From the IMG/VR virus record IMGVR_UViG_3300027419_000023: a DNA stretch of 64,000 nt; one strand, written 5' to 3'. Shown in pieces: positions 2 to 63,103 of this stretch (position 1 is the first letter of the stretch; every line of letters starts with the position of its first letter). Below the pieces are notes generated by a model, which was given only the letters and a program-made list of their open reading frames with translations, was not told the DNA's origin and did no database searches. The DNA comes from a virus. The position numbers and the translations under genes were made by a program.

Positions 2-619
2 TAAATTTATTTTATTATACTTTAGAAAGAACCATCCAATTTTGTTTTTTGCTTCTGGCCTTATATATCCTTTAACCTCCCACCAAATATCTAATTCAGG
101 TAAATAAAAATCCGGTGTATATGTCCTATCTGTCGGTATAGAAAAAGACTTTGGTTCGTATTCCCATTTAATCCCGATTTTAGTAAGTACCGTAGCGACT
201 CGTGTCTCGTAACTAGACCTTAACCATATCTTTCTATCATTGTATGCAAAATAAGATCCATTTCCCCAATTACTTCCTATAGCAGATGATTTGCCATAAT
301 TCGGATTATTTTTTCCACTCATTCGTATTGCCTGAGCAATTCGCCTTTCAGGTGTCCATGAAATCCTCATTTTTTCTTTAGCTTCAGGAGAAATTTTCTT
401 CCCAGCATTTTTACCTTTCATTCCTTCTGACATTCTAACTAATGTTTCAGGTGATCTCTTCTTACCAAACAATGGATGTTTATTACCTCTCATTGCATTT
501 CCTTTGCATTTATTTGAACAGAATTTTCCGCCGTTACGAAGTATTCTAGACTTAATAATATAAAAGTCTTTTCCGCAAAATTCGCATTTTCTTATGGTTC
601 CACTTTTATTGTTTGGCAA
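2..619 (-). CDS. NUMOD3 + PD-(D/E)XK putative homing endonuclease (copy 1; runs off window start)
   Basis: Not in ORF track. Manual translation from TTG 619 after GGAGAA SD gives CEFCGK..FCSNKC, HPLFGKKRS, WLRSSYE..WEYEPK..TPDFYLPELDIWWEVKG. Confidence 0.8.
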   Translation of the reverse strand, partial: MPNNKSGTIRKCEFCGKDFYIIKSRILRNGGKFCSNKCKGNAMRGNKHPLFGKKRSPETLVRMSEGMKGKNAGKKISPEAKEKMRISWTPERRIAQAIRMSGKNNPNYGKSSAIGSNWGNGSYFAYNDRKIWLRSSYETRVATVLTKIGIKWEYEPKSFSIPTDRTYTPDFYLPELDIWWEVKGYIRPEAKNKIGWFFLKYNKINL

Positions 620-689: not shown

Positions 690-1826
690 CTATTTATATC
701 TAAATAAATTAGCTTGCGGGTCTTTCTTAGGCAACTCTGAAAACAATGATTTATATCGTTCATATACAATAGAAGACTTATGATTTTCAAAGTCCTTAAA
801 TATATTATTTATATTATCAAATAGCTGTAATTCTCCGATTGATCGAGAGTATTCGCGTAAGGTATCCTCATCATCTACCATACAGTTCATCATTCGATTG
901 ACTTCTATATATTGATACATGTCGTGATATGACAACAGGAGCGGAGTCATCGGATCAGTTTGATTATAAAGTTCTGATATAGTCATTTTACTACATACAG
1001 GACAATCACATGGAACATCATTCACTGCGTTAGCGAATTCTCTCCCAAGTCGTATACAATGCCGTACATCTAGTGGGAACCAGTAGTCCCGGAATCTAGA
1101 TCCCCATGACCACGAAGACGAATCGAAAGTAATCGATGCACCCGTATACTTAGCTAGCATAGCAAGTGATAGCATATTGCTTGGACCGCTTACCCCAAAG
1201 AAATGTGTATTCGTAAGTGGACTTTCTTCTCCCTTCTCTAGTAGATATAAGTATGCAAATACTTTCAAGTACACGTTAGTGCTTGGATGTACTCCTATAG
1301 CCCATCCATCGAAACTAAAGTCCTTTACTTCCTTATACCAAGTATCTATTTGGTCGAGGGTACGCCCATGTAAAATATTATAAAGAGCAAAATCATAATT
1401 AGTACGATTATCCTCGAAGAATTTAAAATTTTCCTTTGATTCTGATAGAGCGCCTTCAAAGTCTCGTACAGGAGGCACATCTAAGTTCATTCCAATGTCT
1501 ACATTATTTTCAAGCCACCTTAATACCTGCATAGGCGTAACATCTACCTGCCTGCCTTTCTTGCCGAATGACATTACTTGGAAGCCGCCGCTGTCCCCTA
1601 ATGTAATAACATCTTCAGGATAATTCATTACATTTTTGTGATCTAAGTCATCGGCTGTTATACGATAGTATGCGCTCATTAATAGAAATTTGTGATCAAA
1701 AAATGAGTTGCCAGACTCGAAAAACTTGAATCCAGATCCTTTATATTCAGTATTTTTTAACCATTGTACGATATTATTATCTCCAATCGCAGGAACGTAG
1801 TTAGATCCTTTAGGAATTATTTTCAT
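690..1826 (-). CDS. dpdA: TGT-family 7-deazaguanine DNA transglycosylase (DpdA-like), paralogue 1
   Basis: DSGGFQ, MNLDVPP, GWAIG, HFFG, FDSSS and CDCPVC..H zinc site; no PUA domain; near queE; start moved to ATG 1826 after GAGGT SD. Confidence 0.82.
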   Translation of the reverse strand: MKIIPKGSNYVPAIGDNNIVQWLKNTEYKGSGFKFFESGNSFFDHKFLLMSAYYRITADDLDHKNVMNYPEDVITLGDSGGFQVMSFGKKGRQVDVTPMQVLRWLENNVDIGMNLDVPPVRDFEGALSESKENFKFFEDNRTNYDFALYNILHGRTLDQIDTWYKEVKDFSFDGWAIGVHPSTNVYLKVFAYLYLLEKGEESPLTNTHFFGVSGPSNMLSLAMLAKYTGASITFDSSSWSWGSRFRDYWFPLDVRHCIRLGREFANAVNDVPCDCPVCSKMTISELYNQTDPMTPLLLSYHDMYQYIEVNRMMNCMVDDEDTLREYSRSIGELQLFDNINNIFKDFENHKSSIVYERYKSLFSELPKKDPQANLFRYK

Positions 1827-2973
1827 TTTTAACCTCTGGATAAGAGAACATATTTCGTTCAACTGAATCCGTATTCCTTAGTGTCATTAGATGTTTGTAC
1901 TTATTATAAGTTTTATCGCATCCATTGTTATGATAGTATTCTATCATAGATGATACTATTTTAACTGTTTTTTCTTCTCCAACTGATTTAGCGTATTCCA
2001 TGAATGCATAATCATCGGTTACTAACGCATTTACCATACGGTTGACTTCTATGTATTGATAGAGATTATGCAGCATTAACAGAGTGCCCACGTCAGTTCC
2101 GGTTCGTTGATACAAATCTTCAATTGTTAAGTTTCTGCATACTGGACAATTGCATGGAATGGATTTCATATTAAGTTTTGATGTTCTACCAAAATCAGTA
2201 CTAAATCTAATATCCTTAGGAAAATAAAATCTTCTATATATTGATCCGGTCGCATAAGAACTAGAATCAAATGTAATTGACGAATCGAAATGATTGCTCA
2301 GCATTGCCATTACAAGCATGTTCTTGATACCGCTTATTCCAAACATATGGAAGTTTGTATTTAAGTTAAGAGCGTCCTTTTCATGCAAAAACATGTAACC
2401 CAATGTTTGTAAATAAACATTATCTGCCGGCCTAACTCCTAGCGCCCACCCGTTAAAACTTTTAAATTTTTCAACGGCGCTATACCAAGTTTTCATTTCA
2501 TCTAGCGTTTTTCCATGCAACACATTATATAGCTTCATATCATAATTTATTCTATTTTTTTCAAATAATTCAAAGTTCTCAATAGATTCCTTTAATGATG
2601 CATTGAAATTGCTCCACGGAGGTACATCTAAATTCATCCCGATATCTGCATTAGCTTCCATCCAACGTAATACCTGTAACGAGCTTACTTCAATTTTATT
2701 TCCTTTGCTTCTAAAGTTCGCTATCTGAAATCCGCCAGAATCCGCTATAAGAATATAGTTTTCTGGATACTTATATTCATTTCTAAAACTTATAGTACCC
2801 TCTAGTAGTTCCCAATAGGTCGTAGTTAAAGCATAATTATATTGAAAAAATGAATCCCCTTGAAAGAATCTCATATCATGGTTTTTATATTTATAATTAC
2901 TTTTCCATAATTTACTTCTAAATACGTCTGCTACCGCAGGTATAAATATAGCCTTCTTTTCTAATGGTTGCAT
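1810..2973 (-). CDS. dpdA: TGT-family 7-deazaguanine DNA transglycosylase (DpdA-like), paralogue 2
   Basis: DSGGFQ, MNLDVPP, GWALG, HMFG, FDSSS and CNCPVC..HN zinc site; full-length paralogue of 690..1826. Confidence 0.82.
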   Translation of the reverse strand: MQPLEKKAIFIPAVADVFRSKLWKSNYKYKNHDMRFFQGDSFFQYNYALTTTYWELLEGTISFRNEYKYPENYILIADSGGFQIANFRSKGNKIEVSSLQVLRWMEANADIGMNLDVPPWSNFNASLKESIENFELFEKNRINYDMKLYNVLHGKTLDEMKTWYSAVEKFKSFNGWALGVRPADNVYLQTLGYMFLHEKDALNLNTNFHMFGISGIKNMLVMAMLSNHFDSSITFDSSSYATGSIYRRFYFPKDIRFSTDFGRTSKLNMKSIPCNCPVCRNLTIEDLYQRTGTDVGTLLMLHNLYQYIEVNRMVNALVTDDYAFMEYAKSVGEEKTVKIVSSMIEYYHNNGCDKTYNKYKHLMTLRNTDSVERNMFSYPEVKNENNS

Positions 2974-3046
2974 TAAAACACCTATAAAAATATAATCTAA
3001 AAATGTAAAAGAGATTCGAGTATAAAAAGGTTTTGCTCTCCGAGAT

Positions 3047-3712
3047 TTACGGCCGGAAGAACAATGGATGTCCGTTCTCGACGAATCTAAGATGTTCCGA
3101 AGCTATATTCACGATCCTCGGAAAGTCTCCGCCTCGAGCTATTAGTCCCGATCGTATATCCATTACTTCTTTTTCTGGATTGCCAACCTCGGTAAGTTTT
3201 CTTGCGATAGCACTTATAGTAGCGAACTTATTCCTCTTTAGGCTACTTACATCAAGTTCAGGTTTTGCTTCTGAACCCTCTGGAAATTCATGGACTTCAG
3301 TGTACTCGACACTCGGAACAGCTGGCTTAATAATAGCCAGTTTCTCCTTTATAACTAATTTACTAGATTCTTCTTCATCTGAGCGTTCGCTAGTTAATAC
3401 ACTATCATTAGAACTAGCTGGAGGCGTCTTAACAACAGAAGGCTCGGGAAGTTCCGAGTCTCCTGTTGAAGCAGCTTCTTCTGCATTATGGACTTCTGGT
3501 GTCACTATTTCTTTATGGGTGAAGGCTTGCCTCATCCTATTCCGGTATGTGGACGACACTGCATGCTTAGAGATTTCCGTTGCATTTTCAGGGATAATAT
3601 CCCCTATATGGAAAGCTCTATGGGTACTCTTTCCGTTCTCCTTTACAATTTTGTAGTATCTAACCTCTTTTCCACAGATCTTGCATATGTCTTTCTTTTC
3701 ATCGACTGACAT
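3047..3712 (-). CDS. Zinc-finger protein (CxxC..HxxxH) with acidic linker and helical C-terminal domain
   Basis: CKICG..THRAFH; paralogue of 3772..4167; start at ATG 3712 after GGAGTGA. Confidence 0.6.
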   Translation of the reverse strand: MSVDEKKDICKICGKEVRYYKIVKENGKSTHRAFHIGDIIPENATEISKHAVSSTYRNRMRQAFTHKEIVTPEVHNAEEAASTGDSELPEPSVVKTPPASSNDSVLTSERSDEEESSKLVIKEKLAIIKPAVPSVEYTEVHEFPEGSEAKPELDVSSLKRNKFATISAIARKLTEVGNPEKEVMDIRSGLIARGGDFPRIVNIASEHLRFVENGHPLFFRP

Positions 3713-3771
3713 TTTTATCACTCCATTACGTATTATTATAATTATTATAAATTTAATATTATGTCCGGAAC

Positions 3772-4167
3772 TCAATTCCGGACGATCTTTAGATATGGAG
3801 CAGCCAGCTCGATATCGGTCTGGAAATTGCTTCCCTTGGCCAGCATCTTTTTCCTCATCTCGGTTGCATCTTCTGCAGACATCCCGTTTTCCTTCATGAT
3901 ATTTATAGCTTCTGTTACCATCACGATGCGATTCATTCCAGTGGCGTCCAGCACCGGTACGGAGACGTGTCCATTATGGGGGATAGCATCCCGCAATCTC
4001 TTTCGGTATGTCGGGCTAATATCATGGATGTCGTTTAGCACAATCATTCCAGCCGGTACCTCTCCTGCATGGAAAGCTCTATGCGTAATCTTCCCATCGG
4101 CCTTAATGACCTTTACGTATTCGACGTTCCTTCCGCAAACCGGGCATATGTTTTTCTTAGTGTACAT
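3772..4167 (-). CDS. Zinc-finger protein (CxxC..HxxxH), short paralogue of 3047..3712
   Basis: CPVCG..THRAFH; both terminal domains align with the neighbour; BRE/TATA at about 4226-4242. Confidence 0.6.
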   Translation of the reverse strand: MYTKKNICPVCGRNVEYVKVIKADGKITHRAFHAGEVPAGMIVLNDIHDISPTYRKRLRDAIPHNGHVSVPVLDATGMNRIVMVTEAINIMKENGMSAEDATEMRKKMLAKGSNFQTDIELAAPYLKIVRN

Positions 4168-4833: not shown

Positions 4834-5700
4834 CTATTTCATTAGTTTGATCATTAAATTCTCTATAAGGATTTCTTTCCATGCTACTTGGCCCAACCAT
4901 TTATATGATTCGGCAATAGATGTTACCGCGCGCTGTTTATATTCAGAAGATTCTGAACTATCATATATTGTTTGATCGAGATCTTTCAATAATTGTTCAT
5001 AGTCTGGATGACTGTCGAGAATAATCTGCCTAATGGAATTAAAGTCTTTCTTTTTTATTAATTCAAATATTTTTGTTGATAATTTTATTTCACTTAATAT
5101 TCGTGATGATGTTATACCATCCTTATTTTGTTCTATTTTGTTTATAGCAGACCGTATATCATTCCCTGTTTGATCGACTATTTTTTTTAGTGCATCCAAT
5201 TCATAAGGTATTTTTTCATTTTCGCATATAAATTTCAGACGATCGACTATTTGTTCTTTCGGTATATTATCAAATTTAATTAATATACATCTAGATTTTA
5301 ATGGATCTATAATACGATTTATGTAGTTACATGTTAATATAAATCTAGTATTTCGCGAATATGTTTCCATGGTGTTGCGAAGAGCGGTTTGGGCGTCTGG
5401 AGTTAAATGATCGGCTTCGTCTAGAAATACTATTTTTATATTACTATCCATGCTTTTAGTCGATGCAAAGTCTCTTACTTTATCTCGCACGACATCAATA
5501 CCGCGTTCTGAGCTTGCATTCAATACTATATAATCGCATTTTAATGTATTTATAATAATTCTTGCCAGCGTAGTTTTTCCTATACCAGGGCTTCCATAGA
5601 GTAATAAGTGAGGTAAAGAGTCATCGATGTTAAAGGTATTATTAAATCCTATTAAATCTTCTATCTTTTGAGGCCGATATTTTTCAACAAGTAATGGCAT
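4834..5700 (-). CDS. rfcS: Replication factor C small subunit / clamp-loader AAA+ ATPase
   Basis: [32 protein letters not shown] motif. Confidence 0.95.
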
Positions 5701-5731: not shown

Positions 5732-6454
5732 TTAGCTAGTCTGTACTTCATCGACTGGAGATACAGGAGATACCATCCATTTGATGACACTATCTGTATC
5801 TTTACTGACTATCAGCATCGGATAGTCGTTATTAAAAGAAATATTAACTCGTCCTGTTATAACGGATATAAATTCTAAGAAAGTGCATCCATATTTCCCG
5901 ATAACGTCCTTATAGTCGGCTGATGTTTTTATAGTTATCTTATTAAAATTATCCTCGCCTGTTCGGACATATAGTATCCTATCTTTTACTTCTGCAATGA
6001 CTCCTATTTTGCTGGTACCTAATATTTGAGTCGACTTCTTAACATTTGTCCAAATAGCGCTATCTACTTCGAATCCTCCGTCATGTGCTAAGGTAGGCAA
6101 TTCTTCGAGGTTACATTCCAAGAATTGTTCATCTGGAATAATCAAATCTGCATCTATTCCACTAGATGATATATGGAAAATATTTTCTCCTTGCCGGGAC
6201 AATTCTATAGTACCATTCATAGTGCCTAATATGCTAATTAAGGTAGACATATTTTTAATTGGTACATTCATTTCATGATATTCGGTGAAGTTACTAATTT
6301 TCAGGAGACCCGTAGTCGCACCGGTCATCGTTATGTCTTTTAGTGTAACTACAAGACCTTCAGGACCGAACTTTAAAATTCCATCTGTTATACTACCATT
6401 TATACTTACTTTCTTTATAAAGTCTAATAGTGTCTTTGCGTTGATTTTCGTCAC
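5732..6454 (-). CDS. DNA sliding clamp (PCNA/gp45-like)
   Basis: 240 aa beta-rich, ends in PMLI..IKWMVSP like PCNA; adjacent to RFC. Confidence 0.8.
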   Translation of the reverse strand: MTKINAKTLLDFIKKVSINGSITDGILKFGPEGLVVTLKDITMTGATTGLLKISNFTEYHEMNVPIKNMSTLISILGTMNGTIELSRQGENIFHISSSGIDADLIIPDEQFLECNLEELPTLAHDGGFEVDSAIWTNVKKSTQILGTSKIGVIAEVKDRILYVRTGEDNFNKITIKTSADYKDVIGKYGCTFLEFISVITGRVNISFNNDYPMLIVSKDTDSVIKWMVSPVSPVDEVQTS

Positions 6455-6546: not shown

Positions 6547-7197
6547 CTATTTTCCTAAGTTTCGGATATGTAATCTATCTGAAAAATTTGTTCCCAATCG
6601 AAGAGATGTTTTCCATGTATTTGGACCGCTAATACTAAGTTCATGAGGTGTTGCTCCGCCTGGCATTACAAAGATCTTGCCGACATCAAGATTAAATTCC
6701 TGAATTAAAGATCTTAGTGTTCCTTCGCTATACATCCAGGGAGCTGCGCCTACTACAAACTTAAATACGCAATTATCAATAGATTTCCAGTTATTAAAAA
6801 ATTCTCGTCTCTGTTGTAAGGATTTAAAGCAGTCTTGTTTAGGACTAACCATTATAAATCGGAAATACTTTGCAAATTCGGAATCTAAAGGAATAATGCC
6901 ATTAGTTTCTAAGTCTACTTTTTTATCAGTTAAGTTGTCTAATAATTCTTTTAATTCCTCTTTTTGAAGTAATGGTTCTCCTCCGGTGATAACGAGTTGG
7001 GTGTTTGCAGGATGTCTTCCTAAATGTTCCCGAATCCGTTGTAGTAAGTCCGGTATAGTTATTTCTTCGATTTTTATCGCAGGGGTATCGCATCCTTTAC
7101 ATGAAAGTTGACATCCGGCTAGTCGAACGAATAAAACCGGCCTTCCTTGAATTGGCCCTTCGCCCTGAAGGCTATAAAACAAATCATATATCTTCAT
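6547..7197 (-). CDS. queE: 7-carboxy-7-deazaguanine synthase (radical SAM)
   Basis: SLQGEG, FVRLAGCQLSCKGCDT (CxxxCxxC), ITGGEP, LETNG, VSPK, RLH. Confidence 0.92.
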   Translation of the reverse strand: MKIYDLFYSLQGEGPIQGRPVLFVRLAGCQLSCKGCDTPAIKIEEITIPDLLQRIREHLGRHPANTQLVITGGEPLLQKEELKELLDNLTDKKVDLETNGIIPLDSEFAKYFRFIMVSPKQDCFKSLQQRREFFNNWKSIDNCVFKFVVGAAPWMYSEGTLRSLIQEFNLDVGKIFVMPGGATPHELSISGPNTWKTSLRLGTNFSDRLHIRNLGK

Positions 7198-7220
7198 ATT
7201 CAATTCAATAGACGCTTATT

Positions 7221-8880: not shown

Positions 8881-9825
8881 TCAGTCCTGAATCACATTTT
8901 TACTTATTAAATATTCGTTTAACGGTATTCCGATACTAGTTATGGGTTCATTACTATATAAAAATTTTATTATATCATCATATTGTAAAACAATTAATTT
9001 TTTATCAGGATATTTATTATTAAACATAATCATCTTTTGTTTAGAATCATCTGTTAAATATCCTTTTACTTCAACGTATAAATCATACTCCGGTAAATAA
9101 AAATCTGGATGCCAGATAATATCATTCTGCAGTTCTATTCGTTTTTCATATTCCCATGCAACTGTTTGTTTTTCTAATTCAGTTGCAAACAATATTTCAT
9201 ATGACGATCTTAACCATATAATAACATTATTTGATTTAGTAAAATATGCTCCGTTACCATGTCCGGATCCAGGATATGCAGGTTTCCCATAACGAGGATG
9301 ATCTTTTCCTGATATTCTGGGTATCTTTGATAGATGCTGTTTTGTTTCTTCTGTATGATGCTTACCATAAAACGGGTTTTTATCACCAACTAATTTACCC
9401 GTCAATGCTTTTGATATTCTTTCTCCTCGTAATCTTAGAACATCTTCTGAAATATTATATTTTTTACCTAAATGAGACTCAGAGCAATTACGAGCTTTAA
9501 TGCCAAATTCTTTCATCCAATGGCATATAGTATTTTTTTCAATATTAAATTCGCGTTCTATTTGTTCATAAGACTTTCTATGAAAAATATATTGTTCTTC
9601 TAACCATTCTTTGTTCCTAAATTTTATTATGTCAATATTATGACAAAGATCAATAGCTTCTAATAACGTTCTTTTTGGTATACTAAATTTAGCTAACCAC
9701 TTAGATATTGTGACATTAGTACATCCAACTTCTTTAGCTATTTGATTACAAGATCGTTTGAGTATAATATATTGATTAAATAACCATTCTTTATTATTAT
9801 ATTTATTAGAATATTTCTTTACCAT
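8881..9825 (-). CDS. HTH/NUMOD3 + PD-(D/E)XK putative homing endonuclease (copy 2)
   Basis: KEWL..QY repeats, NPFYGKHHTEETK, WLRSSYE, HPDFYLPE, VEVKG. Confidence 0.8.
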   Translation of the reverse strand: MVKKYSNKYNNKEWLFNQYIILKRSCNQIAKEVGCTNVTISKWLAKFSIPKRTLLEAIDLCHNIDIIKFRNKEWLEEQYIFHRKSYEQIEREFNIEKNTICHWMKEFGIKARNCSESHLGKKYNISEDVLRLRGERISKALTGKLVGDKNPFYGKHHTEETKQHLSKIPRISGKDHPRYGKPAYPGSGHGNGAYFTKSNNVIIWLRSSYEILFATELEKQTVAWEYEKRIELQNDIIWHPDFYLPEYDLYVEVKGYLTDDSKQKMIMFNNKYPDKKLIVLQYDDIIKFLYSNEPITSIGIPLNEYLISKNVIQD

Positions 9826-10115: not shown

Positions 10116-11156
10116 CTATAACTCATCAATTTCCAAATATTCTTTCAATATTAATCCAGCATATTCTAAAGTTATTTTATTTTTTATCAATAAATCAATA
10201 TCTTTCTTTTGTAACACTCTTAATTTAATAAAAGGATATTTATTATAGAACTTAATCATTTTACGTTTTGCATCATCCGTTAACCATCCCTTTATTTCGA
10301 TATAAAGATCATACTCGGGCAAATAAAAATCAGGATGCCATATATCATTGTCTAATTCAAACAATTTTTCATATTCCCATACACATTTAATCTTATCAAG
10401 ATAATCAGCAAATACAGTTTCATAAGATGAACGTAACCATACAGTAGATCCATCTAATTTAGTATGATAAGAACCTTTACCAAATCCCGTACCGGGTCTA
10501 GCAGGTTTACCGTACATATAATGATCTTTACCAGATATTCTTGGCCAGAGAGCCATTTTCCTACGAGTTTCTTCAGATGGATTAGAAAGTTTCTTGGATA
10601 ATATTTGTTTGGTTTCTTCAGTATGATGCTTTCCGAAAAACGGATTCTTTTCACCTGTTCTACCATACATCGGATTATTAGAACCAGTATACTTTCCTTT
10701 TCTGGAAATCGACATATGCTCTCGTGCTTCTGCATCCAACGTCCAATGCTTTCCAAAATTTGGATGGTTTTCTCCTACAAATTTTTTACGGGAAAGAGAT
10801 ATCTTCCTACGAGTTTCTTCAGATGGATTAGAATTTGCTTCCGATATCTTACGTTTCGTTTCTTCGGATCTTAGTTTGCCATATATGGGATTATTTTCAC
10901 CAGAAACATCTGCGTGATTTTCAGACATCTTTTTCCTAGTATATGAAGTTTTGCACTGTTCTGATGATGGTCGTATGCTAAAACCAAATAATTTTATATA
11001 TTTACCTACTATATAATTGGTAGTATTTAATTCTTTTGCAATAGACGAAATTGATCGAAATATCATATTATATTGTTCGTTTATCCAATCATAATCAGTA
11101 AGAAGTAATTTCGCTTCTTCGGTTAATATAGAATCTTTCTTTTTTAAGCGTACCAA
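10116..11156 (-). CDS. NUMOD3 + PD-(D/E)XK putative homing endonuclease (copy 3)
   Basis: Multiple SEETRRKIS and NP.YG repeats, WLRSSYE, HPDFYLPE, IEIKG; probable TTG start at 11156 after GGAG. Confidence 0.8.
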   Translation of the reverse strand: MVRLKKKDSILTEEAKLLLTDYDWINEQYNMIFRSISSIAKELNTTNYIVGKYIKLFGFSIRPSSEQCKTSYTRKKMSENHADVSGENNPIYGKLRSEETKRKISEANSNPSEETRRKISLSRKKFVGENHPNFGKHWTLDAEAREHMSISRKGKYTGSNNPMYGRTGEKNPFFGKHHTEETKQILSKKLSNPSEETRRKMALWPRISGKDHYMYGKPARPGTGFGKGSYHTKLDGSTVWLRSSYETVFADYLDKIKCVWEYEKLFELDNDIWHPDFYLPEYDLYIEIKGWLTDDAKRKMIKFYNKYPFIKLRVLQKKDIDLLIKNKITLEYAGLILKEYLEIDEL

Positions 11157-11407
11157 GAATTCCAGACTCCTCTTATATTCATACACTCATATAAAATGAA
11201 TAATATTGAATAAGGTATATTTTTTGCTTTTAAAAAGCCTATTAACATATAGCCATTTGAACCGATCCATAGAAAAAATCCAAGACCTCTCCAAGAAGCA
11301 CTGATATCAGAAGAAAATGTTGCACCTAATACAGCAACTAACATAGTTAAATATTCTAATGGATGTATTTTGATGTCATTATAGATATCAGTAATGCTAT
11401 TATTCAA
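11144..11407 (-). CDS. Small 3-TM membrane protein (PnuC/SWEET half-transporter-like)
   Basis: Three TM segments; GFFLWIGSN and GVWNSW pattern. Confidence 0.55.
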   Translation of the reverse strand: MNNSITDIYNDIKIHPLEYLTMLVAVLGATFSSDISASWRGLGFFLWIGSNGYMLIGFLKAKNIPYSILFILYECMNIRGVWNSWYA

Positions 11408-14269: not shown

Positions 14270-14596
14270 TTAATCAGTGCACAATTCATTAGATCCACAC
14301 TTTGGACAAACTTTATTAGGATCCTTGCAATATTGATCATAAGTTGTCCATTTCATTTCTCGAATTCTACGACCGAAATATTCATACCAACGCGCAATAT
14401 TTTCCTGCATTGTCATGTCCGGACGAATTGGTATACCATTGATAAATTCGCAACAATGAATTGTTTCGTTTAATTTGCTCGTTTGCAATCCAAATAGCGT
14501 TTCATCATATTCTCTAGATAAAAATTTCGACGGGTTATAAGACTTATCATAAAAATCGTCTTGTTCCCATCCACACTTATGACAATGTACGAACAT
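14270..14596 (-). CDS. Zn-ribbon protein
   Basis: CHKCGW..CPKCGS. Confidence 0.6.
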   Translation of the reverse strand: MFVHCHKCGWEQDDFYDKSYNPSKFLSREYDETLFGLQTSKLNETIHCCEFINGIPIRPDMTMQENIARWYEYFGRRIREMKWTTYDQYCKDPNKVCPKCGSNELCTD

Positions 14597-15194
14597 GATT
14601 ATTAATCTCCTTTTTATTAGAAACTAATATGGTTTCAATACTATTCGTTCCCATGATAACGTTAACTAGGGATTTGACATTATAACCTTGATCTCGGAGT
14701 CGTTCTGCAGCACCATCCTTTTCGATTATAGTATATGATCCGATTACATTAATATGGTTACTTTCTAAGGTATCGACAATAACAGAAATTGTTCCACCTG
14801 TACTAACAACGTCATCTATGATAATAACATTACGTCCTGGCTTAATACTATTGATGTACATAGTTGACTCCGAATAGCCAGTTTGTTGATGGACTTCTAG
14901 TTCTCCGGGTAATCCATATTTTCGTTTTCTAGCAACCACGTAAGGTCTATCCATTAGTGTACTAACCACTGTTGCGATGGGTAAGGCCATTGCTTCTGGT
15001 GCAATAATGAAATCAAGATTTGAATGGGTTACATCGCGTTCTATTAGTTCTTGTAGTCTACGAGCTGTTTTAAAAAGAATTTCTGGATCAATTGGCAACG
15101 CGCCGTCTGTTAGTGCATGAACAAAGTAGTTATATCCATTTTTATTTATAATAGGAGATTCTTTTATAGAATCTATTAAAAATTGAAGATTCAT
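14577..15194 (-). CDS. hpt: Archaeal-type hypoxanthine/guanine phosphoribosyltransferase
   Basis: YNYFVHALTDG, EAMALP, RKRKYGLPGE, QQTGYS, IIDDVVSTGGT PRPP loop. Confidence 0.88.
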   Translation of the reverse strand: MNLQFLIDSIKESPIINKNGYNYFVHALTDGALPIDPEILFKTARRLQELIERDVTHSNLDFIIAPEAMALPIATVVSTLMDRPYVVARKRKYGLPGELEVHQQTGYSESTMYINSIKPGRNVIIIDDVVSTGGTISVIVDTLESNHINVIGSYTIIEKDGAAERLRDQGYNVKSLVNVIMGTNSIETILVSNKKEINNHVRTLS

Positions 15195-17219: not shown

Positions 17220-17503
17220 AACCGGTAACTCCGTGGTAGAATTTTATTGTCATGATTTAAAGTTTTCTCTTCAAACCATCTACCAATATTTCCGCAAGTA
17301 TTTTTATCATCTCGATAATATCTCAATGCATATGGCGATTTTATAAAATTAAACTTACCTGTCACTAGGTTAATAGGTGCTAGATTATTACTATGCCAAC
17401 ATTGATGTTGTCTATTAATTTCTCCATGATTAGGTGCACTTGGATCGAATTTGTAATACTTGCAATCACAACAATATCTCTTTATCATACCAAATCTCCT
17501 CAC
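17216..17503 (-). CDS. Small Cys-rich protein (family with 43321 and 49820)
   Basis: CCDC..C..NLVTG..CGNIGRWF. Confidence 0.55.
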   Translation of the reverse strand: MRRFGMIKRYCCDCKYYKFDPSAPNHGEINRQHQCWHSNNLAPINLVTGKFNFIKSPYALRYYRDDKNTCGNIGRWFEEKTLNHDNKILPRSYRL

Positions 17504-20004
17504 TGAAATGCAAATAGTCCTGTCTTCTTTGGTAATACTACTTTTTGTTTTTCAGTATTTAATACTTTTGGTACGCTTTCGAATCCGAAGAGACTGCTCT
17601 CCGTAAGTTTCCTTTTGCCAGTCGCTATATTTATGCCTATAGCCGAGAACACTCTTTCAAGGGGTGGCAACAATTGATGCTCTATATAGAAACTAGTATC
17701 AATACGACCGTCTGTCTCCTTAATATGCTCTAAGGTATCAACCATGAGACTAATGCCATCCTTAGATGCACCAGGTAAAGCCATATATCGAATACGATCA
17801 CCTAGTCCGGGTAGATTCTCACCACGTTCTCTCATTTTCTTATAACAAGTTACATGAGGTTGGATATTCTTGTAGCCTTCTATATTGCCGATCTTACGGC
17901 TAAGAACAAGTTTTTCTGCTAGTTCTGGATTAACTCTAATATCCTGTAGGGTTTTAACGGATAATATAACCTCATTGGTATATTTCCAGGCTTCGTCTAC
18001 TTTACCTTCGCATAGGATTAAATGAAGTACCTTATCCATGCTTTCGCCGACTAATGAAACCCAATCCCTCCTGCGTGTTTCGATGCCCCTGTACTTAATC
18101 TTGTCTTTCCAACCATCTTTTCCTTGTTCGAATATCCACATGGCATAGCGTTTTTTCTCAAAGATAATAGCACGTTTCGCAAAACACTCGAAATCGATTT
18201 CCATGGGCGGAGGCAATTTCGTTAGCATACTGTCATGGATGATTTTAGCGCACTTTTTACTCTCATCTGGGTCTGTTACTTTATTTAACCGGATAAACAC
18301 AGAATCTGTATCCCCGCCAACTACATGACAATCTACTAGTTCTTCCGCCGTTTTTCTAGTCAACTGAATCGCCATACGACCTACAGAAGTCACTGAATTA
18401 GCAAGTCTTGGATCGTAAAGCCTACCCCGAATAGCCCCGGTGTAGCCGTAAAACGAATTTAACAAAATTTTCACACTGTATTGTTGATTATCGTAGAATT
18501 CTCTCTCATTTTTGTCACTACACGACTTCATTAGTTTTTTTAATTCTACTCTTTTGTTGTATAGGTTAGTCAGAATCCTTGGCATTATACCTTCGTACAC
18601 GGAATGATCGGTATATCGTACTTCATTAGGAGCAGTTATTGTTTTGACATCTGTTTCTTCCTCATTTATGATAGACGACCAGCATATATTATAAGCTCGA
18701 ATAGCTGATGGATAAAGACTTTTATAGTCCATGATAATTAGGTTTTCGTGTAGCCCGCGCTCCGAATCAAGCACTTTACCTCCTGTTACTTTCTCGACTT
18801 TTTTGTCTTTGTCGTTGAGAGGCCATAGTCTTCCTTCCTTATAGAATTCTCGAAGTAACATTGACTCTATACGGCGAGACTGACCACCATTGATTGTCTC
18901 ATGAAGTAATAAGCCACAGTCTTTACTAATATTGATGTAACGGTCTATTAGTTTAAGTTCCTTTATGATGTCTTGGAGTAGGTCAGCATCTCGTCCCGCA
19001 TAATCAAGAAAGGACCGTAACTTACTTTCGGATCCGTTTAACCATATTTCACGCATTTCACTGGCTTTAATGTCTAGTTTTGGTCTGTTAAGTAATGTTT
19101 TGGAAACATTTTCCAAGCTATATGAAGTCAACGAATAATTTAGTTTAATTGCATTTAATAAGTCTATGTAAGCCCGACCTACCATATTAACTTCTTTACT
19201 TGCACCAAACGCTCTTATCTGGAATGGAGTTCCATCTCGGCCTAAATCATTAGGAATACCTAATATTTCTAGTCTCTTCTCAATATACGGAAAATCGAAT
19301 GTATCACCATTAAAAGCCATTACGATATCTGGATCATATTCTTTGAATATGTCCATAAAGGTTGATAACATCCAGAATTCATCAGGGAAATATTTGATGT
19401 TTTCGGTGTCTTGTCCTGGCTTAGCAACTAACACAAGGGTATTTCCAGTGTTGAAACTTATCGAAATTATGGTTATAGGATCTCTTTCCGGTATAGGCAC
19501 TCCAAATTCGGGAGGCAGTACTTCAATATCCAAGCCAAGAAATCGTAACGGAGCATTTTCCAGGATATTATGTAAGGGCTTCACGTTATTGCTATCAGCT
19601 TCGAGCCACTTCATGCCCCATAAGTCATTATCAGTCAGGAACCGAGCTGTAGCATATAGCACGTCAGCTTCGAAAATATCAACTATAGCTGGATGCCTTC
19701 TTAAGGAGTCTCGGATCTTCGGGACATCACTAGGTCTATTGACATAGACTTGCAGGACTTCTGTTCGTTCCTTTTGAAAACCAATTGGTAGAAATTTATA
19801 GTCCTCGAATACATCAGTAACTTCAGGAAGTTCCGACAGCATTTGCTTGACTTCGCTAGAGTTTCTTGGTAAAATATAAAAGTATGGCCTGAATCCAAGG
19901 ATGTCATGCTGAATAGAATTACCAGACTTATCGCGACCATATAAAGTAATCACCGGACCACGGCCACTATTCCTATATTTAGTGGATATTAATTGAAATT
20001 GCAT
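17500..20004 (-). CDS. polB: Family B DNA polymerase, archaeal type, intein-free
   Basis: LDIE, FNGDTFD, DYKSLYPS, KILLNSFYG, GDTDS, KKRY; ATG 20004 after GGAG. Confidence 0.97.
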   Translation of the reverse strand: MQFQLISTKYRNSGRGPVITLYGRDKSGNSIQHDILGFRPYFYILPRNSSEVKQMLSELPEVTDVFEDYKFLPIGFQKERTEVLQVYVNRPSDVPKIRDSLRRHPAIVDIFEADVLYATARFLTDNDLWGMKWLEADSNNVKPLHNILENAPLRFLGLDIEVLPPEFGVPIPERDPITIISISFNTGNTLVLVAKPGQDTENIKYFPDEFWMLSTFMDIFKEYDPDIVMAFNGDTFDFPYIEKRLEILGIPNDLGRDGTPFQIRAFGASKEVNMVGRAYIDLLNAIKLNYSLTSYSLENVSKTLLNRPKLDIKASEMREIWLNGSESKLRSFLDYAGRDADLLQDIIKELKLIDRYINISKDCGLLLHETINGGQSRRIESMLLREFYKEGRLWPLNDKDKKVEKVTGGKVLDSERGLHENLIIMDYKSLYPSAIRAYNICWSSIINEEETDVKTITAPNEVRYTDHSVYEGIMPRILTNLYNKRVELKKLMKSCSDKNEREFYDNQQYSVKILLNSFYGYTGAIRGRLYDPRLANSVTSVGRMAIQLTRKTAEELVDCHVVGGDTDSVFIRLNKVTDPDESKKCAKIIHDSMLTKLPPPMEIDFECFAKRAIIFEKKRYAMWIFEQGKDGWKDKIKYRGIETRRRDWVSLVGESMDKVLHLILCEGKVDEAWKYTNEVILSVKTLQDIRVNPELAEKLVLSRKIGNIEGYKNIQPHVTCYKKMRERGENLPGLGDRIRYMALPGASKDGISLMVDTLEHIKETDGRIDTSFYIEHQLLPPLERVFSAIGINIATGKRKLTESSLFGFESVPKVLNTEKQKVVLPKKTGLFAFQ

Positions 20005-20022
20005 GAGATTCTCCAATGGTAA

Positions 20023-39392: not shown

Positions 39393-41267
39393 TCATGAGA
39401 ATACGCGCCTTGGAAATTCGTATTCCCTTCTTACACGTCCCCATGCCTCAGTTTTGGTAAAATAGCCAACAATTCGCGTCATGTGGCTTACGATAGGACT
39501 GCCGCATACAGAGCATTTTTCAGAGTTGCCACAAACGGTAACGTGACCTTGTTCGCACTCGCCAAAACCGTAATTGACGGCCATATGTGAAACACCCTTG
39601 GACACCGCATACTCCACAAGATGTCTCATGACGGAAGGATCCTCAATTCTATCCTGAACATTTAAGTGCAGGATGCCGCCACCGCTGAGAATATCCTGGA
39701 ACTTGCCTGTAAGTTCTATACGCTCTGGCATAGACGCATCCAAAATTAGAGGAATATATTGGTTACTATACAATTCGAAAGGTATTTTTTCAGGACCGAA
39801 AAGTACTTTATCTTTCTCGACAAGTTTGGATGCTACACTCTCGCCTGGGATTTCCTCGACGTTAAATGAATTTCCGGTATCGATACTAGCTTGTATAGCA
39901 AACTCTTCGATAAACTTTAGGACATTCGTTGCAAATGCAGTTCCTTCTTCTGTCTGTATATCTAAGCCCATAAAGTAACATGCTTCATGGATGCCAATGA
40001 TACCGATAGTAGAGAACAATCTTTTCAGCGTAAACCAATGCATTGGATTGAAGAACTGAAGGAATCCTTGGTCAATACGGCGTTGCAATATTTCTTCCCG
40101 ATGCACGATTAGTAAGTCTCTACATATTTCAAGTTGCTTGGTCAAGTCTGCAAAAAACCTGTCCATATTTTTATTAGCCTTTAATGCAACTCTAGGTAAA
40201 TTTACTGTAACCACCCTATGAGAACCTAGATTAAGACCGCCATTTCCGAAAGAGTCTCCACGAGCTTCCATGCGGGATTTATCGCTGAGCAAGCGACAGC
40301 AACTAGCGATCTTGTTACCACTGTTCACATAAATATTGAAAGTGCCATTCTTGCAGTTGACTTTCGAGAACCATTCCAGAAATTCTGTATCTATAATTGA
40401 TTTGTCTTCTCGGCAAGCAATATTACAAGTCACTATCGGAAACCTATAGGGTAGTCCACTTGCCGGATCACCATTAGCAAACCATTCTGCGAAAGCCTTT
40501 TGTACGGAAATCACGTATTCGTAGTCAATGCTAGAACCGTCTGGATAAGTATAGTGTTCGAATAGTTTTTCTAGATTAGGCCTGTCAAAGATACTTAGGT
40601 TTGTGAATGGACTTTGCCCACCTACCCTAAACTTATTCGACATGACATGGGTAAAGCCCTGGAGCAAATTGATGATTTGATAGTTGTCTAAGTTTTCTTT
40701 CTTGGTATAGTAACATAAGTTTACTATCAAATCAGAAACCGCAATCGCGCCGGCAAAGTTTTGTGACAAATCCATGGTTGTTTCGATTACCTGTGCCATA
40801 AAGGAACTGGCTCGTTTAGGAGGCAAACTCTTCAATTGACCGTATTTTCTGCCCTCGTTCATAATGAAGGATGTTGAGTATGCCATACAGTACGGAATTT
40901 GAGTTGATGCAGCATCATGAAAATAGACTGATGAATTAAATACAGCTTTGAGCAGTTCGTTGGCTCGTTCTAAGCCAAAACGTCCCTTGGAGTAGCAATG
41001 TAACAAGTAATAAGAATTAAGTTTTGATAGACCTTTTACTATTTCCGCTGAATAATTATTATGAGAAATTTCGTCGTTTGAATTTGAGTTAGCATCTAAA
41101 CTGATGTCGGATACTTTATTTGTGAAATATTTTTTGCTCATCACTCCTATGTCCAATGCATCGCGAGAAATTCCCTCGATGTCTAGTAATGCTTTTCCTT
41201 TGTCGTTAATATTATATTTATTATATAGTTCTTCGAAATCATTATCGAATGTTGTTTGTATGCGCAT
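39393..41267 (-). CDS. nrdD: Class III anaerobic ribonucleoside-triphosphate reductase, no ATP cone
   Basis: YFHD, PYCMAY, SCCRL, VNLPR, EEIPGES, C..H..C..CG, RIVGY glycyl-radical loop. Confidence 0.95.
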   Translation of the reverse strand: MRIQTTFDNDFEELYNKYNINDKGKALLDIEGISRDALDIGVMSKKYFTNKVSDISLDANSNSNDEISHNNYSAEIVKGLSKLNSYYLLHCYSKGRFGLERANELLKAVFNSSVYFHDAASTQIPYCMAYSTSFIMNEGRKYGQLKSLPPKRASSFMAQVIETTMDLSQNFAGAIAVSDLIVNLCYYTKKENLDNYQIINLLQGFTHVMSNKFRVGGQSPFTNLSIFDRPNLEKLFEHYTYPDGSSIDYEYVISVQKAFAEWFANGDPASGLPYRFPIVTCNIACREDKSIIDTEFLEWFSKVNCKNGTFNIYVNSGNKIASCCRLLSDKSRMEARGDSFGNGGLNLGSHRVVTVNLPRVALKANKNMDRFFADLTKQLEICRDLLIVHREEILQRRIDQGFLQFFNPMHWFTLKRLFSTIGIIGIHEACYFMGLDIQTEEGTAFATNVLKFIEEFAIQASIDTGNSFNVEEIPGESVASKLVEKDKVLFGPEKIPFELYSNQYIPLILDASMPERIELTGKFQDILSGGGILHLNVQDRIEDPSVMRHLVEYAVSKGVSHMAVNYGFGECEQGHVTVCGNSEKCSVCGSPIVSHMTRIVGYFTKTEAWGRVRREYEFPRRVFS

Positions 41268-41721
41268 TATTATTCTTCCTGAAGTCTTGATTAGTTAATT
41301 TTCCATGGTCCCAAATTCGTTGGTTATTTGATGCAGGAAATCCAGACGTTTTCAATTCTTGAATGTATGGGCCATCCACGATAATGTCAATGGCTTCTTT
41401 GATGTTGTCCGGAATTTCCTCGTATAAAAAGCCTGTATATAAAATAGAAGGTAATTTACAGTTAGTTGATAGAGTATTTAAAGCTTTTGGCTGATAGACG
41501 GGATCTCCTCCAGTGAAGACTACACTATCATAGAAACCTTGGTACCGTTCCAAATGACTTAAAATGTCATTGGTGTCTAGGTCGTGACCATACGAAAAGT
41601 CTTGTAGTTCAGGATTCTGGCATCCGGGACAGGCATGACGGCAGCCGGAAAAGAATACTTCATACGAGATACCGATGCCATTTATGGTGCCTACGTTGGT
41701 ACCCGCGCATCTAAATTTCAT
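41242..41721 (-). CDS. nrdG: Anaerobic RNR activase (radical SAM)
   Basis: GCRHACPGCQNP, TGGDP, YTG, VDGPY, SNNQR. Confidence 0.93.
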   Translation of the reverse strand: MKFRCAGTNVGTINGIGISYEVFFSGCRHACPGCQNPELQDFSYGHDLDTNDILSHLERYQGFYDSVVFTGGDPVYQPKALNTLSTNCKLPSILYTGFLYEEIPDNIKEAIDIIVDGPYIQELKTSGFPASNNQRIWDHGKLTNQDFRKNNNAHTNNIR

Positions 41722-44784: not shown

Positions 44785-44937
44785 CTAAGCTACCTTCTCG
44801 TATAGTTTTATTTCACGTCCATTAGAATAACCTATTGGTACATGATATTCCTTGCAAGCATACTCAGAAATATTAACGGTATCTACTATCCAAGAATTAA
44901 CGTAATTGCATTTTAAGCAACGAAATTCGAAGATCAT
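44785..44937 (-). CDS. Short paralogue of 44471..44758
   Basis: Manual translation MIFEFRCLKCNYVNSWIVDTVNISEYACKEYHVPIGYSN.. Confidence 0.5.
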   Translation of the reverse strand: MIFEFRCLKCNYVNSWIVDTVNISEYACKEYHVPIGYSNGREIKLYEKVA

Positions 44938-45977
44938 GAAGTTACTCCTTTCCATTTTAATACTTGATCATTTATCGAAACACCCCAATTTGCAATATCG
45001 ATAAATATATTATTATTAATATAATCTTCTACATCAGTTATATCATTTCCATACATTATAATAAGTTTCTCAGTTGGGTATAACTCATGAAATAAAGTCA
45101 TTTTCTTTTTTGCTATATCTGTTACAAACCCTTTAACTTCTATCCATAAAGAGTACTCAGGAAGCCAAAAATCTGGAAAATACGTACCTGCTATACCTAA
45201 TCCATAGCCAATACCTTCATAATTCCATTCTATATGTAGTAGATCTAGTAAAGTGGCTAGTCTAGTTTCAAAACTTGATCTAAGCCAGACTACGGTATTA
45301 TCTAATTTTGTATAATGTCCTCCCTTTCCATGACCAGATCCTGGATACGCTGGTTTTCCAAATTGTGGATTATTAGGACCAGTCATCTTTTCTTTTATTT
45401 CAGGTAAACTTTTTGTTGCTTTTATTCGTTCCTTAATATCTGTTGTCTCGTATAACAATTTCTGACGTTTTGACATTTCAATTTTCTGTTCTTCAGTTAC
45501 GATATGAGAACGCCCTATAGAAGCTTGGCGTATCTTTTCTATTGCTTCTGGGGTATGATGTTTTCCATACAAAGGATGTTTTTCACCGGAACGATCAAAA
45601 GAAAATTTTTGTTTTTGTTCATCTGACCATTTATAACTACCTAGATTCGGAGTATCTTCTTTTGTGCATCCTTTATTCCACGGAATATGTCCTTTTTGAA
45701 AATGATTGTCTTTATTCTTCTCAGCTATACGAGCAACTCTTTCATCAGTTTCTTTAGTTAAGCCTTTACTCCAGCCAATACGTCGTCTGTTTGGCTTTAA
45801 TATACCATATTTTCTAATATAATATCTTACATTACCGGCACTATCATTGCATATCATAGCAATTTCTTTCGGACTAAGATCTTTCACTATATAATGATCA
45901 TATAACCATTCTTTATTATTAAGAGGATGACTTTTATTATTTTTAATTCTACCTGCCGCATTTCCCATATTAAACAC
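44934..45977 (-). CDS. NUMOD3 + PD-(D/E)XK putative homing endonuclease (copy 4)
   Basis: KEWLY..Y, KGLTKETDERV, HPLYGKHHT, GKPAYPGSGHG, WLRSSFE, PDFWLPE, IEVKG. Confidence 0.8.
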   Translation of the reverse strand: MFNMGNAAGRIKNNKSHPLNNKEWLYDHYIVKDLSPKEIAMICNDSAGNVRYYIRKYGILKPNRRRIGWSKGLTKETDERVARIAEKNKDNHFQKGHIPWNKGCTKEDTPNLGSYKWSDEQKQKFSFDRSGEKHPLYGKHHTPEAIEKIRQASIGRSHIVTEEQKIEMSKRQKLLYETTDIKERIKATKSLPEIKEKMTGPNNPQFGKPAYPGSGHGKGGHYTKLDNTVVWLRSSFETRLATLLDLLHIEWNYEGIGYGLGIAGTYFPDFWLPEYSLWIEVKGFVTDIAKKKMTLFHELYPTEKLIIMYGNDITDVEDYINNNIFIDIANWGVSINDQVLKWKGVTS

Positions 45978-62176: not shown

Positions 62177-63103
62177 TTATAATATATGGTTACCGAGTAA
62201 AATTATCTCATAAAGGTCAGTACATATAGGAAAACTTTCTAAATCAATTATATCTTTTTCTCTTATTATTTGTAAATTAATATTAGAATATATGACAAAA
62301 AATATTTCTAATTTTTGCTTCGCTTTTTCGTGCATCCAGCCTTTAACTTCCCACCACATATCTAGTTCAGGAAGATAAAAATCTGGAAGGTAGGTTGTAT
62401 TTAATTCTGGTATATCAAACGTTTTAGATTCGTATTCCCAATGTATTCCTAATTTATCTAACATTGTAGCTACGCGAATTTCGTATGAAGAACGAAGCCA
62501 TATATTATTGCCATCTATTTTTGTATACCAATTTCCTTTCGATTTATAAGTATTATAAGACGGGCCGGGCGGATGTCCTTTCCGTCCACGCAACTTTTGT
62601 TTTTGTTCTTCTGTCCAGCTTTTTCCATACAAAGGATGATCTTTACCTTTTGGAAATACTCGATGAGACATCTTTTCCCTAAAATCAGGATTTTTCCATA
62701 ATTCAGTAAACCTATCAGAAAATCCTTTTTTAACTTCTTCTATATTCGATCTTCGTTTACTAGATATGGATAATTGTTCTGAATAACTTCTGATTGGTAT
62801 ATCAAATTCTTTTAATTGTGTTCTTATTTTATGCGGTGGTAAATGCAAAAGGTTGCTACTTATATGTGTTATAGACAATTGGTCAATATAATATTTTTCA
62901 TATAGCCAGTCATAGTTTTGTAATAGTTTCATAGATTTTTCTATTTCAGATTTATCCTTTCCATTACACGTTGCTCTAGCTGGTAAACCAAAAAACTTTA
63001 ATGCTTTACTAACATCTGTTTGATATACGCCTAATTCGTCTGCTATACTGCTCATGGGACGTTTATTGATTATATATTCAGTTTCTAACCACTCCTTACC
63101 CAT
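62177..63103 (-). CDS. HTH/NUMOD3 + PD-(D/E)XK putative homing endonuclease (copy 5)
   Basis: KEWL..EY, HPLYGK, WLRSSYE, LPDFYLPELDMWWEVKG; frame open to ACG 63148 behind GAGGAG. Confidence 0.8.
   Translation of the reverse strand: MGKEWLETEYIINKRPMSSIADELGVYQTDVSKALKFFGLPARATCNGKDKSEIEKSMKLLQNYDWLYEKYYIDQLSITHISSNLLHLPPHKIRTQLKEFDIPIRSYSEQLSISSKRRSNIEEVKKGFSDRFTELWKNPDFREKMSHRVFPKGKDHPLYGKSWTEEQKQKLRGRKGHPPGPSYNTYKSKGNWYTKIDGNNIWLRSSYEIRVATMLDKLGIHWEYESKTFDIPELNTTYLPDFYLPELDMWWEVKGWMHEKAKQKLEIFFVIYSNINLQIIREKDIIDLESFPICTDLYEIILLGNHIL

Follow-up and report, generated by a model that had tools for sequence, protein, structure and literature searches.

In the field of 7-deazaguanine DNA modification, DpdA counts as the single signature enzyme, and the replacement of guanine by its subfamilies spans under 0.1% to 100%. 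The named enzymes, as we understand them, are DpdA1 of 9g, CAjan and Iggy, DpdA2 of nt-1, DpdA3 of phiST and CP220, and DpdA4 of HVTV-1. In some viruses DpdA is accompanied by the archaeosine synthase ArcS, a TGT paralogue which has lost the catalytic Asp. To our knowledge, what sets the target motif and the efficiency of a DpdA has not been established. Single DpdAs are motif-specific, e.g. that of CAjan acts on two motifs (PMC7544227) and that of Iggy on the GA motif only (PMC10484667). Here we describe two TGT-family genes, DpdA-A and DpdA-B (hereafter A and B), which lie in tandem at positions 690-2973 of a 64,000-nucleotide stretch of viral DNA (the window), IMG/VR record IMGVR_UViG_3300027419_000023. 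Our reading, which is tentative and to which we give slightly less than an even chance, is that they are two separately active DNA transglycosylases that would insert preQ0 at different guanine contexts, with site preference, base and substrate all predicted from sequence.

A second dpdA copy is rare, but not unheard of. When the DpdA of phage 9g was used as a tblastn query, 233 phage records were matched at 236 places, with at most 3 records containing an extra place. This agrees with the statement, made in a preliminary description of the window, that deazaguanine-modifying phages typically carry one dpdA. The isolate records matching protein A (31) had one place each, and full-text searching of the literature turned up no account of a virus with two dpdA genes. 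A possible precedent among isolates is Microbacterium phage Megan, for which two TGT/DpdA-like proteins of 319 and 305 amino acids (aa) are present in BFVD (A0A649VLV5 and A0A649VKF2).

The two genes are arranged head to tail on the minus strand, with A at the 5′ and B at the 3′ side. The features of the pair are as follows.

1810..2973, minus strand: DpdA-A, putative TGT-family DNA guanine transglycosylase paralogue, ATG start, 387 aa (open reading frame (ORF) listing checked against the letters, Pfam, AlphaFold2, Foldseek, clade support)
690..1826, minus strand: DpdA-B, downstream paralogue, 378 aa when started at ATG 1826 (ORF, GAGGT site, orthologue N-termini, Pfam, AlphaFold2, clade support)
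1810..1836, minus strand: A/B junction with the ribosome-binding site of B (read from the sequence)
2979..3035, minus strand: control region upstream of A (read from the sequence)

The tandem of two full-length TGT-family genes and the overlap of their reading frames, both reported in the preliminary description, are confirmed. The frames share 17 nucleotides (nt; 1810-1826), which takes in the TAA stop of A (1810-1812). The longest ORF of B begins with a TTG at 1862 (390 aa), which would mean a 53-nt overlap with A. ATG 1826 rather than TTG 1862 is likely to be the true start, because a GAGGT ribosome-binding site at 1832-1836, inside the 3′ end of A, lies 5 nt before it, and because the B orthologues all begin MK/T-I-I-x-K-G-S-N-Y-V-P-A, in agreement with this position. 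No promoter-like site was found in the sequence of the junction between A and B, and in relatives the junctions range from -17 to +3 nt and are always tight. Upstream of A are an AGGTG ribosome-binding site (2979-2983, minus strand) and the element CAAAA-CC-TTTTTATA (3021-3035, minus strand), which resembles an archaeal BRE/TATA and, judged by the known BRE/TATA consensus, may be a promoter of archaeal type. The two proteins share 43% identity over 379 residues (E 4e-118).

Both A and B match the Pfam TGT model PF01702 (36.6 and 39.7 bits respectively; gathering cut-off 26.3). The motifs DSGGFQ, LDVPP and FDSSS are present in both proteins, as are the zinc sites (CNCPVC...H302 in A, CDCPVC...H301 in B), all as quoted in the preliminary description. 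For both, the closest solved relative is the ArcTGT of P. horikoshii (1iq8; 18-21% identity). D78, D116 and D236 of A align with Asp95, Asp130 and Asp249 of ArcTGT, and C274, C276, C279 and H302 with its zinc ligands Cys279, Cys281, Cys284 and His307. The catalytic Asp residues and the zinc site (CxCxxC...H) are unchanged throughout 88 family members, and they are also invariant in all the A-, B- and sister-clade sequences of a 20-sequence alignment. A loss of catalytic residues as in ArcS or QTRT2 was seen in neither A nor B.

AlphaFold2 models, for which alignments were supplied, had a pLDDT of 94.3 for A and 93.1 for B, with disorder confined to the last 15-25 residues. The model of A fits a TGT-type (beta/alpha)8 barrel, and that of B is also a confident TGT fold. 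In a Foldseek search the top match of the A model was ArcTGT 1iq8 (E 4.6e-12), followed by the TGT of Z. mobilis and those of mouse and human; these TGT matches had a probability of 1.00 and a template modelling (TM) score of about 0.6. The ratio of non-synonymous to synonymous substitution rates (dN/dS) was usable for the closest orthologue pair only (L004 vs L018), with dS saturated in most other pairs, and it was 0.13 for A and 0.08 for B, indicating purifying selection on both. The earlier suggestion that both copies are active is well supported by evolution and by predicted structure, because the catalytic and zinc residues are invariant, purifying selection acts on both genes, the predicted folds are confident, and the two are inherited together in diverged relatives.

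The duplication appears to be old and to have been maintained. In the trees the A clade is recovered with SH-aLRT (approximate likelihood ratio test) values of 99 and 96, the B clade with 100 and a single-copy sister clade with 100, and these are united at 96. The first position of the tandem is A-type and the second B-type. As the internal branching of the A clade is congruent with that of the B clade, the pair seems to have been inherited together. At least 9 related metagenomic viruses in all have the A-B tandem, these being the window and its contig (L001), L004/L005, a JGI contig of 137 kb (proteins P0005 and P0122), L018, L019, L013, L105, L106 and JGI 3300075153. Three copies (A, B and B′) are found in L007, together with its duplicate records, and in L107, and an A-type gene stands alone with a full Que pathway in L006 and also in L003. 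B without A was found in 0 of about 11 loci. Remoter members of the family (25-30% identity) have a single copy, with linkage to Que genes retained.

Some relatives contain incomplete copies. The second copy of L003 (L003:7176-8024, P0078), beside the clamp loader, is an open, A-like frame of 282 aa that has lost about 92 aa internally, in frame, and with them the nucleophile motif and its zinc cysteines; the gene may be decaying, or its product may serve as a non-catalytic partner. In the sister clade, L010, L011 and L022 retain a B-like C-terminal fragment of 195 aa. The 164-aa ORF that takes the place of B in L003 and L006 is not a remnant of B, since all that hhalign returned was a CxxC match of 9 columns at 0.8% probability.

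Only 9 positions are fixed differently between the A and B clades. The divergence around the pocket given in the preliminary description is present as quoted, with GWALGVRP in A and GWAIGVHP in B, FDSSSYATG in A and FDSSSWSWG in B, and HN in A and HD in B. Directly after the nucleophile motif there is a Tyr in A (Tyr240) and in the sister clade, and a Trp in B (Trp239). Position 181 of A (180 in B), in the G-V-x-P loop, is R or K in the A clade, H in B-type copies and D in sister-clade proteins, and it aligns to V198 of ArcTGT, in a segment which we take to be the part of TGT that faces the 7-substituent of the base. In the helix after this loop two further pairs are clade-fixed (Q189 in A and K188 in B; G192 in A and A191 in B). 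Such changes could shift contacts with flanking nucleotides or the choice of base.

By inferred function and context, A and B would be DpdA-type DNA transglycosylases, because they belong to a conserved module in the order QueE, sliding clamp, clamp loader, A, B, QueD, FolE, QueC. The same module is present in more than 15 related loci. In the relatives a 153-aa protein comes after the clamp loader, and the number of TGT genes ahead of QueD is one to three. In the genome studied here QueE, QueD, FolE and QueC all lie within 6 kb, those past the edge of the window being read from the contig of the same genome (locus L001). No QueF, ArcS or Gat-QueC was seen up to 10 kb either side of A and B, and therefore preQ0 is the expected and most likely inserted base. 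In both proteins a helical extension follows the zinc subdomain and the chain ends shortly afterwards, and the C1-C3/PUA tRNA-binding domains are missing. H153 aligns to Gln169 of ArcTGT, and this His, which is invariant in A, B and the sister clades, is by its position probably equivalent to His181 of bDpdA. One copy being an ArcS was ruled out, as no ArcS model of NCBIfam was matched at E up to 0.01 and the catalytic Asp is kept.

The C-termini of the two proteins may connect them to the replisome. B ends in ...QANLFRYK and A has ...NMFSY nine residues from its end, and both tails are disordered in the AlphaFold2 models. The viral PolB (17500-20016) ends in ...GLFAFQ, the 153-aa protein in the gp62 position ends in ...SLFDF, likewise in relatives, and distant members of the DpdA family end in Q-x-x-I-F-x-F. 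A strict [LMI]-[FY]-x-[FWY] motif was found within the last 16 residues of 43 of the 120 family members, compared with 8.8% of background ORFs. These tails resemble clamp-interaction peptides, and would be in keeping with both copies binding the clamp and acting on DNA.

In the mechanism that we propose, the pair would have arisen by an old tandem duplication within large tailed viruses of anaerobic habitats. FolE, QueD, QueE and QueC of the virus itself would turn GTP into preQ0, and A and B would be produced from one transcript with translational coupling. Each enzyme would carry out TGT chemistry, in which one Asp serves as general acid/base, a second as nucleophile, and a third reads the base, and would swap guanine in the viral DNA for preQ0. 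A and B may have become sub-functionalised by flanking sequence or DNA context, so that together they modify more sites than either would alone, and three-copy lineages would take the same strategy further. With their flexible, clamp-binding-like tails, both enzymes may act at or behind the replication fork.

Several observations weigh against this proposal. In CAjan two motifs are served by one DpdA, and a second enzyme would thus not strictly be required for this. The residues separating the two clades are few, and an altered preference for DNA context is a guess. In addition, the absence of B without A in about 11 loci and the conserved tight coupling of the two genes would fit a complex equally well. 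Such a complex would be a heterodimer or hetero-oligomer of A and B forming the working enzyme, either with both subunits catalytic or with B active only when bound to A, and we consider it possible, although rather unlikely. Every B-type copy has an A-type copy directly upstream, and the tight junctions (-17 to +3 nt) favour equal co-expression. TGT forms homodimers in bacteria and, in eukaryotes, heterodimers of paralogues, with mouse QTRT among the fold matches, and the 282-aa copy of L003, without nucleophile and zinc site, could be a non-catalytic partner. However, in L006 and L003 an A-type gene stands by itself beside a complete pathway, the sister clade has single copies, A and B are both catalytic by sequence, unlike QTRT2, and three-copy arrays suit a fixed two-subunit enzyme poorly. 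The DpdA of Salmonella is also monomeric, both in the crystal and in solution (PMC10164549), which places a caveat on the argument of the preliminary description that bacterial TGTs work as dimers. Of the heterodimer suggested there, the obligate form is disfavoured for A, which can stand alone, whereas B has never been seen without A.

Alternatively, A and B may insert different 7-deazaguanines, for example preQ0 alongside CDG (7-carboxy-7-deazaguanine) or another intermediate, giving a mixed pattern over the genome, and this we regard as unlikely. It would be in keeping with the clade-specific residue of the G-V-x-P loop (R/K, H or D), aligned to the segment that presumably reads the 7-substituent, and with the Tyr/Trp switch beside the nucleophile. 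A precedent exists in the promiscuity of DpdA2 enzymes, which accept preQ0, preQ1 and CDG, and in phage nt-1, which has three modifications (PMC10516641). Against it, only a plain preQ0 pathway lies near the genes, where no QueF, amidotransferase or DpdC-, DpdL-, DpdM- or DpdN-like gene was recognised. Moreover, TGTs read the 7-substituent mainly via main-chain atoms, and changes of side chain therefore need not alter the choice of base.

It is also doubtful that the copies are redundant in chemistry and target and are kept for dosage, timing, host background or escape from an inhibitor. A copy number varying from 1 to 3, together with decayed copies (the L003 deletion and the 195-aa fragment of L010), indicates birth-and-death turnover of the kind typical of arms-race genes. 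However, 43% identity, fixed clade residues, congruent deep trees and a dN/dS of about 0.1 argue for stable, distinct roles, and a shared transcription unit makes different timing unlikely. That one copy modifies DNA and the other a host or viral tRNA, a further option raised in the preliminary description, is highly improbable: the closest solved and curated relatives (ArcTGT 1iq8 and TIGR00432) are tRNA enzymes, but A and B score 62.6 and 48.7 bits against TIGR00432, far below its cut-off of 350 and so outside that equivalog, neither has the tRNA-binding domains found C-terminally in ArcTGT, both have His at the Gln169 position, a PolB-like replisome tail and linkage to preQ0 synthesis and the replisome, and no tRNA genes were found in the window.

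The features neighbouring A and B are listed below.

2..619, minus strand: 5′ part of an ORF for a homing endonuclease (NUMOD3 and endonuclease-I-like; Pfam), running in frame into QueD beyond the window
3047-3712, minus strand: small CxxC...H...H protein of 221 aa, paralogous to the next (43% identity over 72 aa, E 3e-18)
3772-4167, minus strand: small CxxC...H...H protein of 131 aa
4362-4823, minus strand: 153-aa protein in the gp62 position, by its location beside the clamp loader
4834-5700, minus strand: clamp loader of gp44/RFC type (phrog_168, E 5.5e-73; Pfam AAA/RFC lid)
5732-6454, minus strand: sliding clamp (Atlas model with TM 0.85 to archaeal PCNA clusters; gp45 features)
6547..7203, minus strand: QueE (five best NCBIfam matches all QueE models, best E 4e-20)
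14577..15194, minus strand: archaeal-type hypoxanthine/guanine (or adenine) phosphoribosyltransferase (NCBIfam HPT_Archaea 185.5 bits; APRT subfamily model 189.5 bits)

The matches of QueE to its models are all under their equivalog cut-offs. NrdG is encoded separately from it, at 41242-41721, adjoining NrdD. QueD is fused to the homing endonuclease, giving a full product of 373 aa (L001:12355-13476) in which residues 242-368 form the QueD domain. The QueD ORF is enlarged in some relatives too (L105, 378 aa; L023; L098). The fusion ORF is followed on its 3′ side by FolE, QueC (185.7 bits, over the NCBIfam cut-off) and a Dam-like methylase. This last gene, after QueC at L001:14707-15681, encodes a protein of 324 aa resembling Dam-family adenine methyltransferases, with a match at the N-terminus only; it is not in this place in most relatives, and may provide a second layer of modification to the DNA. 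In relatives L004 (L004:257-835) and L005 the phosphoribosyltransferase gene directly adjoins QueE. Its product may salvage the guanine released by DpdA back into GTP for preQ0 synthesis.

The two CxxC...H...H proteins had no match in Pfam, NCBIfam or PHROG, and the pair is kept beside the DpdA/Que module in relatives at every DpdA copy number. A one-to-one pairing of these upstream zinc-ribbon proteins with the DpdA copies was ruled out, as both are present in single- and triple-copy viruses. They may be accessory DNA-binding factors. A gene for a pyrimidine-dimer DNA glycosylase like T4 endonuclease V (Pfam Pyr_excise) lies directly upstream of, and overlaps, DpdA-A in several relatives (L004:5560-5877, L105:2052-2369, L106:2043-2363, L018:51-374); in this genome it is at L001:19147-19482, about 8 kb from DpdA-A.

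The virus is tailed, with baseplate J and V, PolB, a D5-type primase-helicase, NrdD/NrdG and an RNA ligase encoded in the window. It is uncultivated and about 140 kb in size, the DpdA-A protein being found also on contigs of up to 141 kb, and a megablast search with 25 kb found no match among isolate phages. The load of homing endonucleases is unusually heavy and is spread over replication and structural modules, with at least 5 NUMOD3 genes (2-619, 8881-9825, 10116-11186, 44934-45977 and 62177-63103), most of them endonuclease-I-like.

The host is probably archaeal, perhaps a methanogen. Pointers to archaea include the PCNA-like clamp, the RFC-like loader, the archaeal-type phosphoribosyltransferase, the ArcTGT-like DpdA and the BRE/TATA-like element, and the sources are digester, sludge and sediment. 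The labels of metagenome-assembled genomes are inconsistent (Methanotrichaceae and Nanoarchaeia, but also Bacilli and Paceibacterota) and lend weak support. A bolder and, taken as a whole, rather improbable picture would be that of a clade of probably archaeal, methanogen-associated tailed viruses with an unnamed ArcTGT-like DpdA subfamily in arrays of two to three copies, each with its own site or base specificity. In these viruses the enzymes, all held by their C-terminal tails to the PCNA/gp45-type viral clamp, would travel on it jointly and rewrite guanines as the DNA is replicated, and a viral phosphoribosyltransferase would salvage guanine into the preQ0 pathway.

A ready comparative system is offered by relatives whose co-inherited paralogues number one, two or three, and the handful of fixed differences near the active site is a route to the determinants of DpdA site and base specificity. 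It could also be asked whether expansion of paralogues gives a denser or more varied camouflage of the genome against restriction and CRISPR, and this lineage may be diversifying its DNA disguise against host defences. The locus points to a DpdA lineage beyond DpdA1-4 and to a possible coupling of modification to the clamp.

In relation to the named families, neither A nor B had a match in PHROGs or, at E up to 1, in PADLOC. A Pfam search found no DUF6610, the domain that defines DpdA4 (PMC10516641), in either protein. The Pfam TGT model, though matched by A and B, found nothing in phage 9g or nt-1, and a profile of the A/B/sister alignment found nothing in 9g and a match of E 0.009 in nt-1. 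An hhalign comparison with the 9g DpdA was not significant (probability <1%). Among viral proteins the nearest fold matches were unnamed metagenomic proteins (TM 0.79), followed by jumbo-phage TGT-domain proteins, nt-1 (E 8.9e-11), several of DpdA1 type and phiST (E 4.9e-5). A and B would therefore fall outside the named subfamilies bDpdA and DpdA1-4, sharing with them a likeness at the level of the fold, the comparison with DpdA3 and DpdA4 not being a direct one of sequence. Their family is nearer to the archaeal TGT core than to bDpdA, DpdA1 or DpdA2.

Of the known systems, ArcTGT is both the closest solved sequence match and the best fold match, and the catalytic and zinc residues align. 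It is, however, a protein of 582 aa with tRNA-binding domains (1iq8), whereas A and B, at 378-387 aa, consist of the catalytic core only, are viral and replisome-linked, and have His in place of Gln169. bDpdA of Salmonella Montevideo shares the predicted chemistry and has the same arrangement of an Asp general acid, an Asp nucleophile, an Asp and a His on the edge of the base, and a zinc site (PMC10164549). It differs in being a single-copy monomer, whereas A and B are two copies, have no PADLOC match, and have no recognised DpdB-like ATPase nearby. Eukaryotic QTRT1/QTRT2 resembles the pair in having two TGT paralogues per genome, and A has fold matches in the mouse and human structures; QTRT2, however, is non-catalytic, and A and B by contrast both keep all catalytic residues. 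With the viral DpdAs A and B would share the expected role, post-replicative exchange of guanine for a 7-deazaguanine. The order of genes is also similar in phage 9g (KJ419279, dpdA region 2006-3960), where a polymerase, clamp, dpdA, FolE, QueD and QueC stand in a row. The DpdA1 phages differ from the virus described here in that about 99% of their records have one copy, whereas two to three tandem paralogues are found in this lineage.

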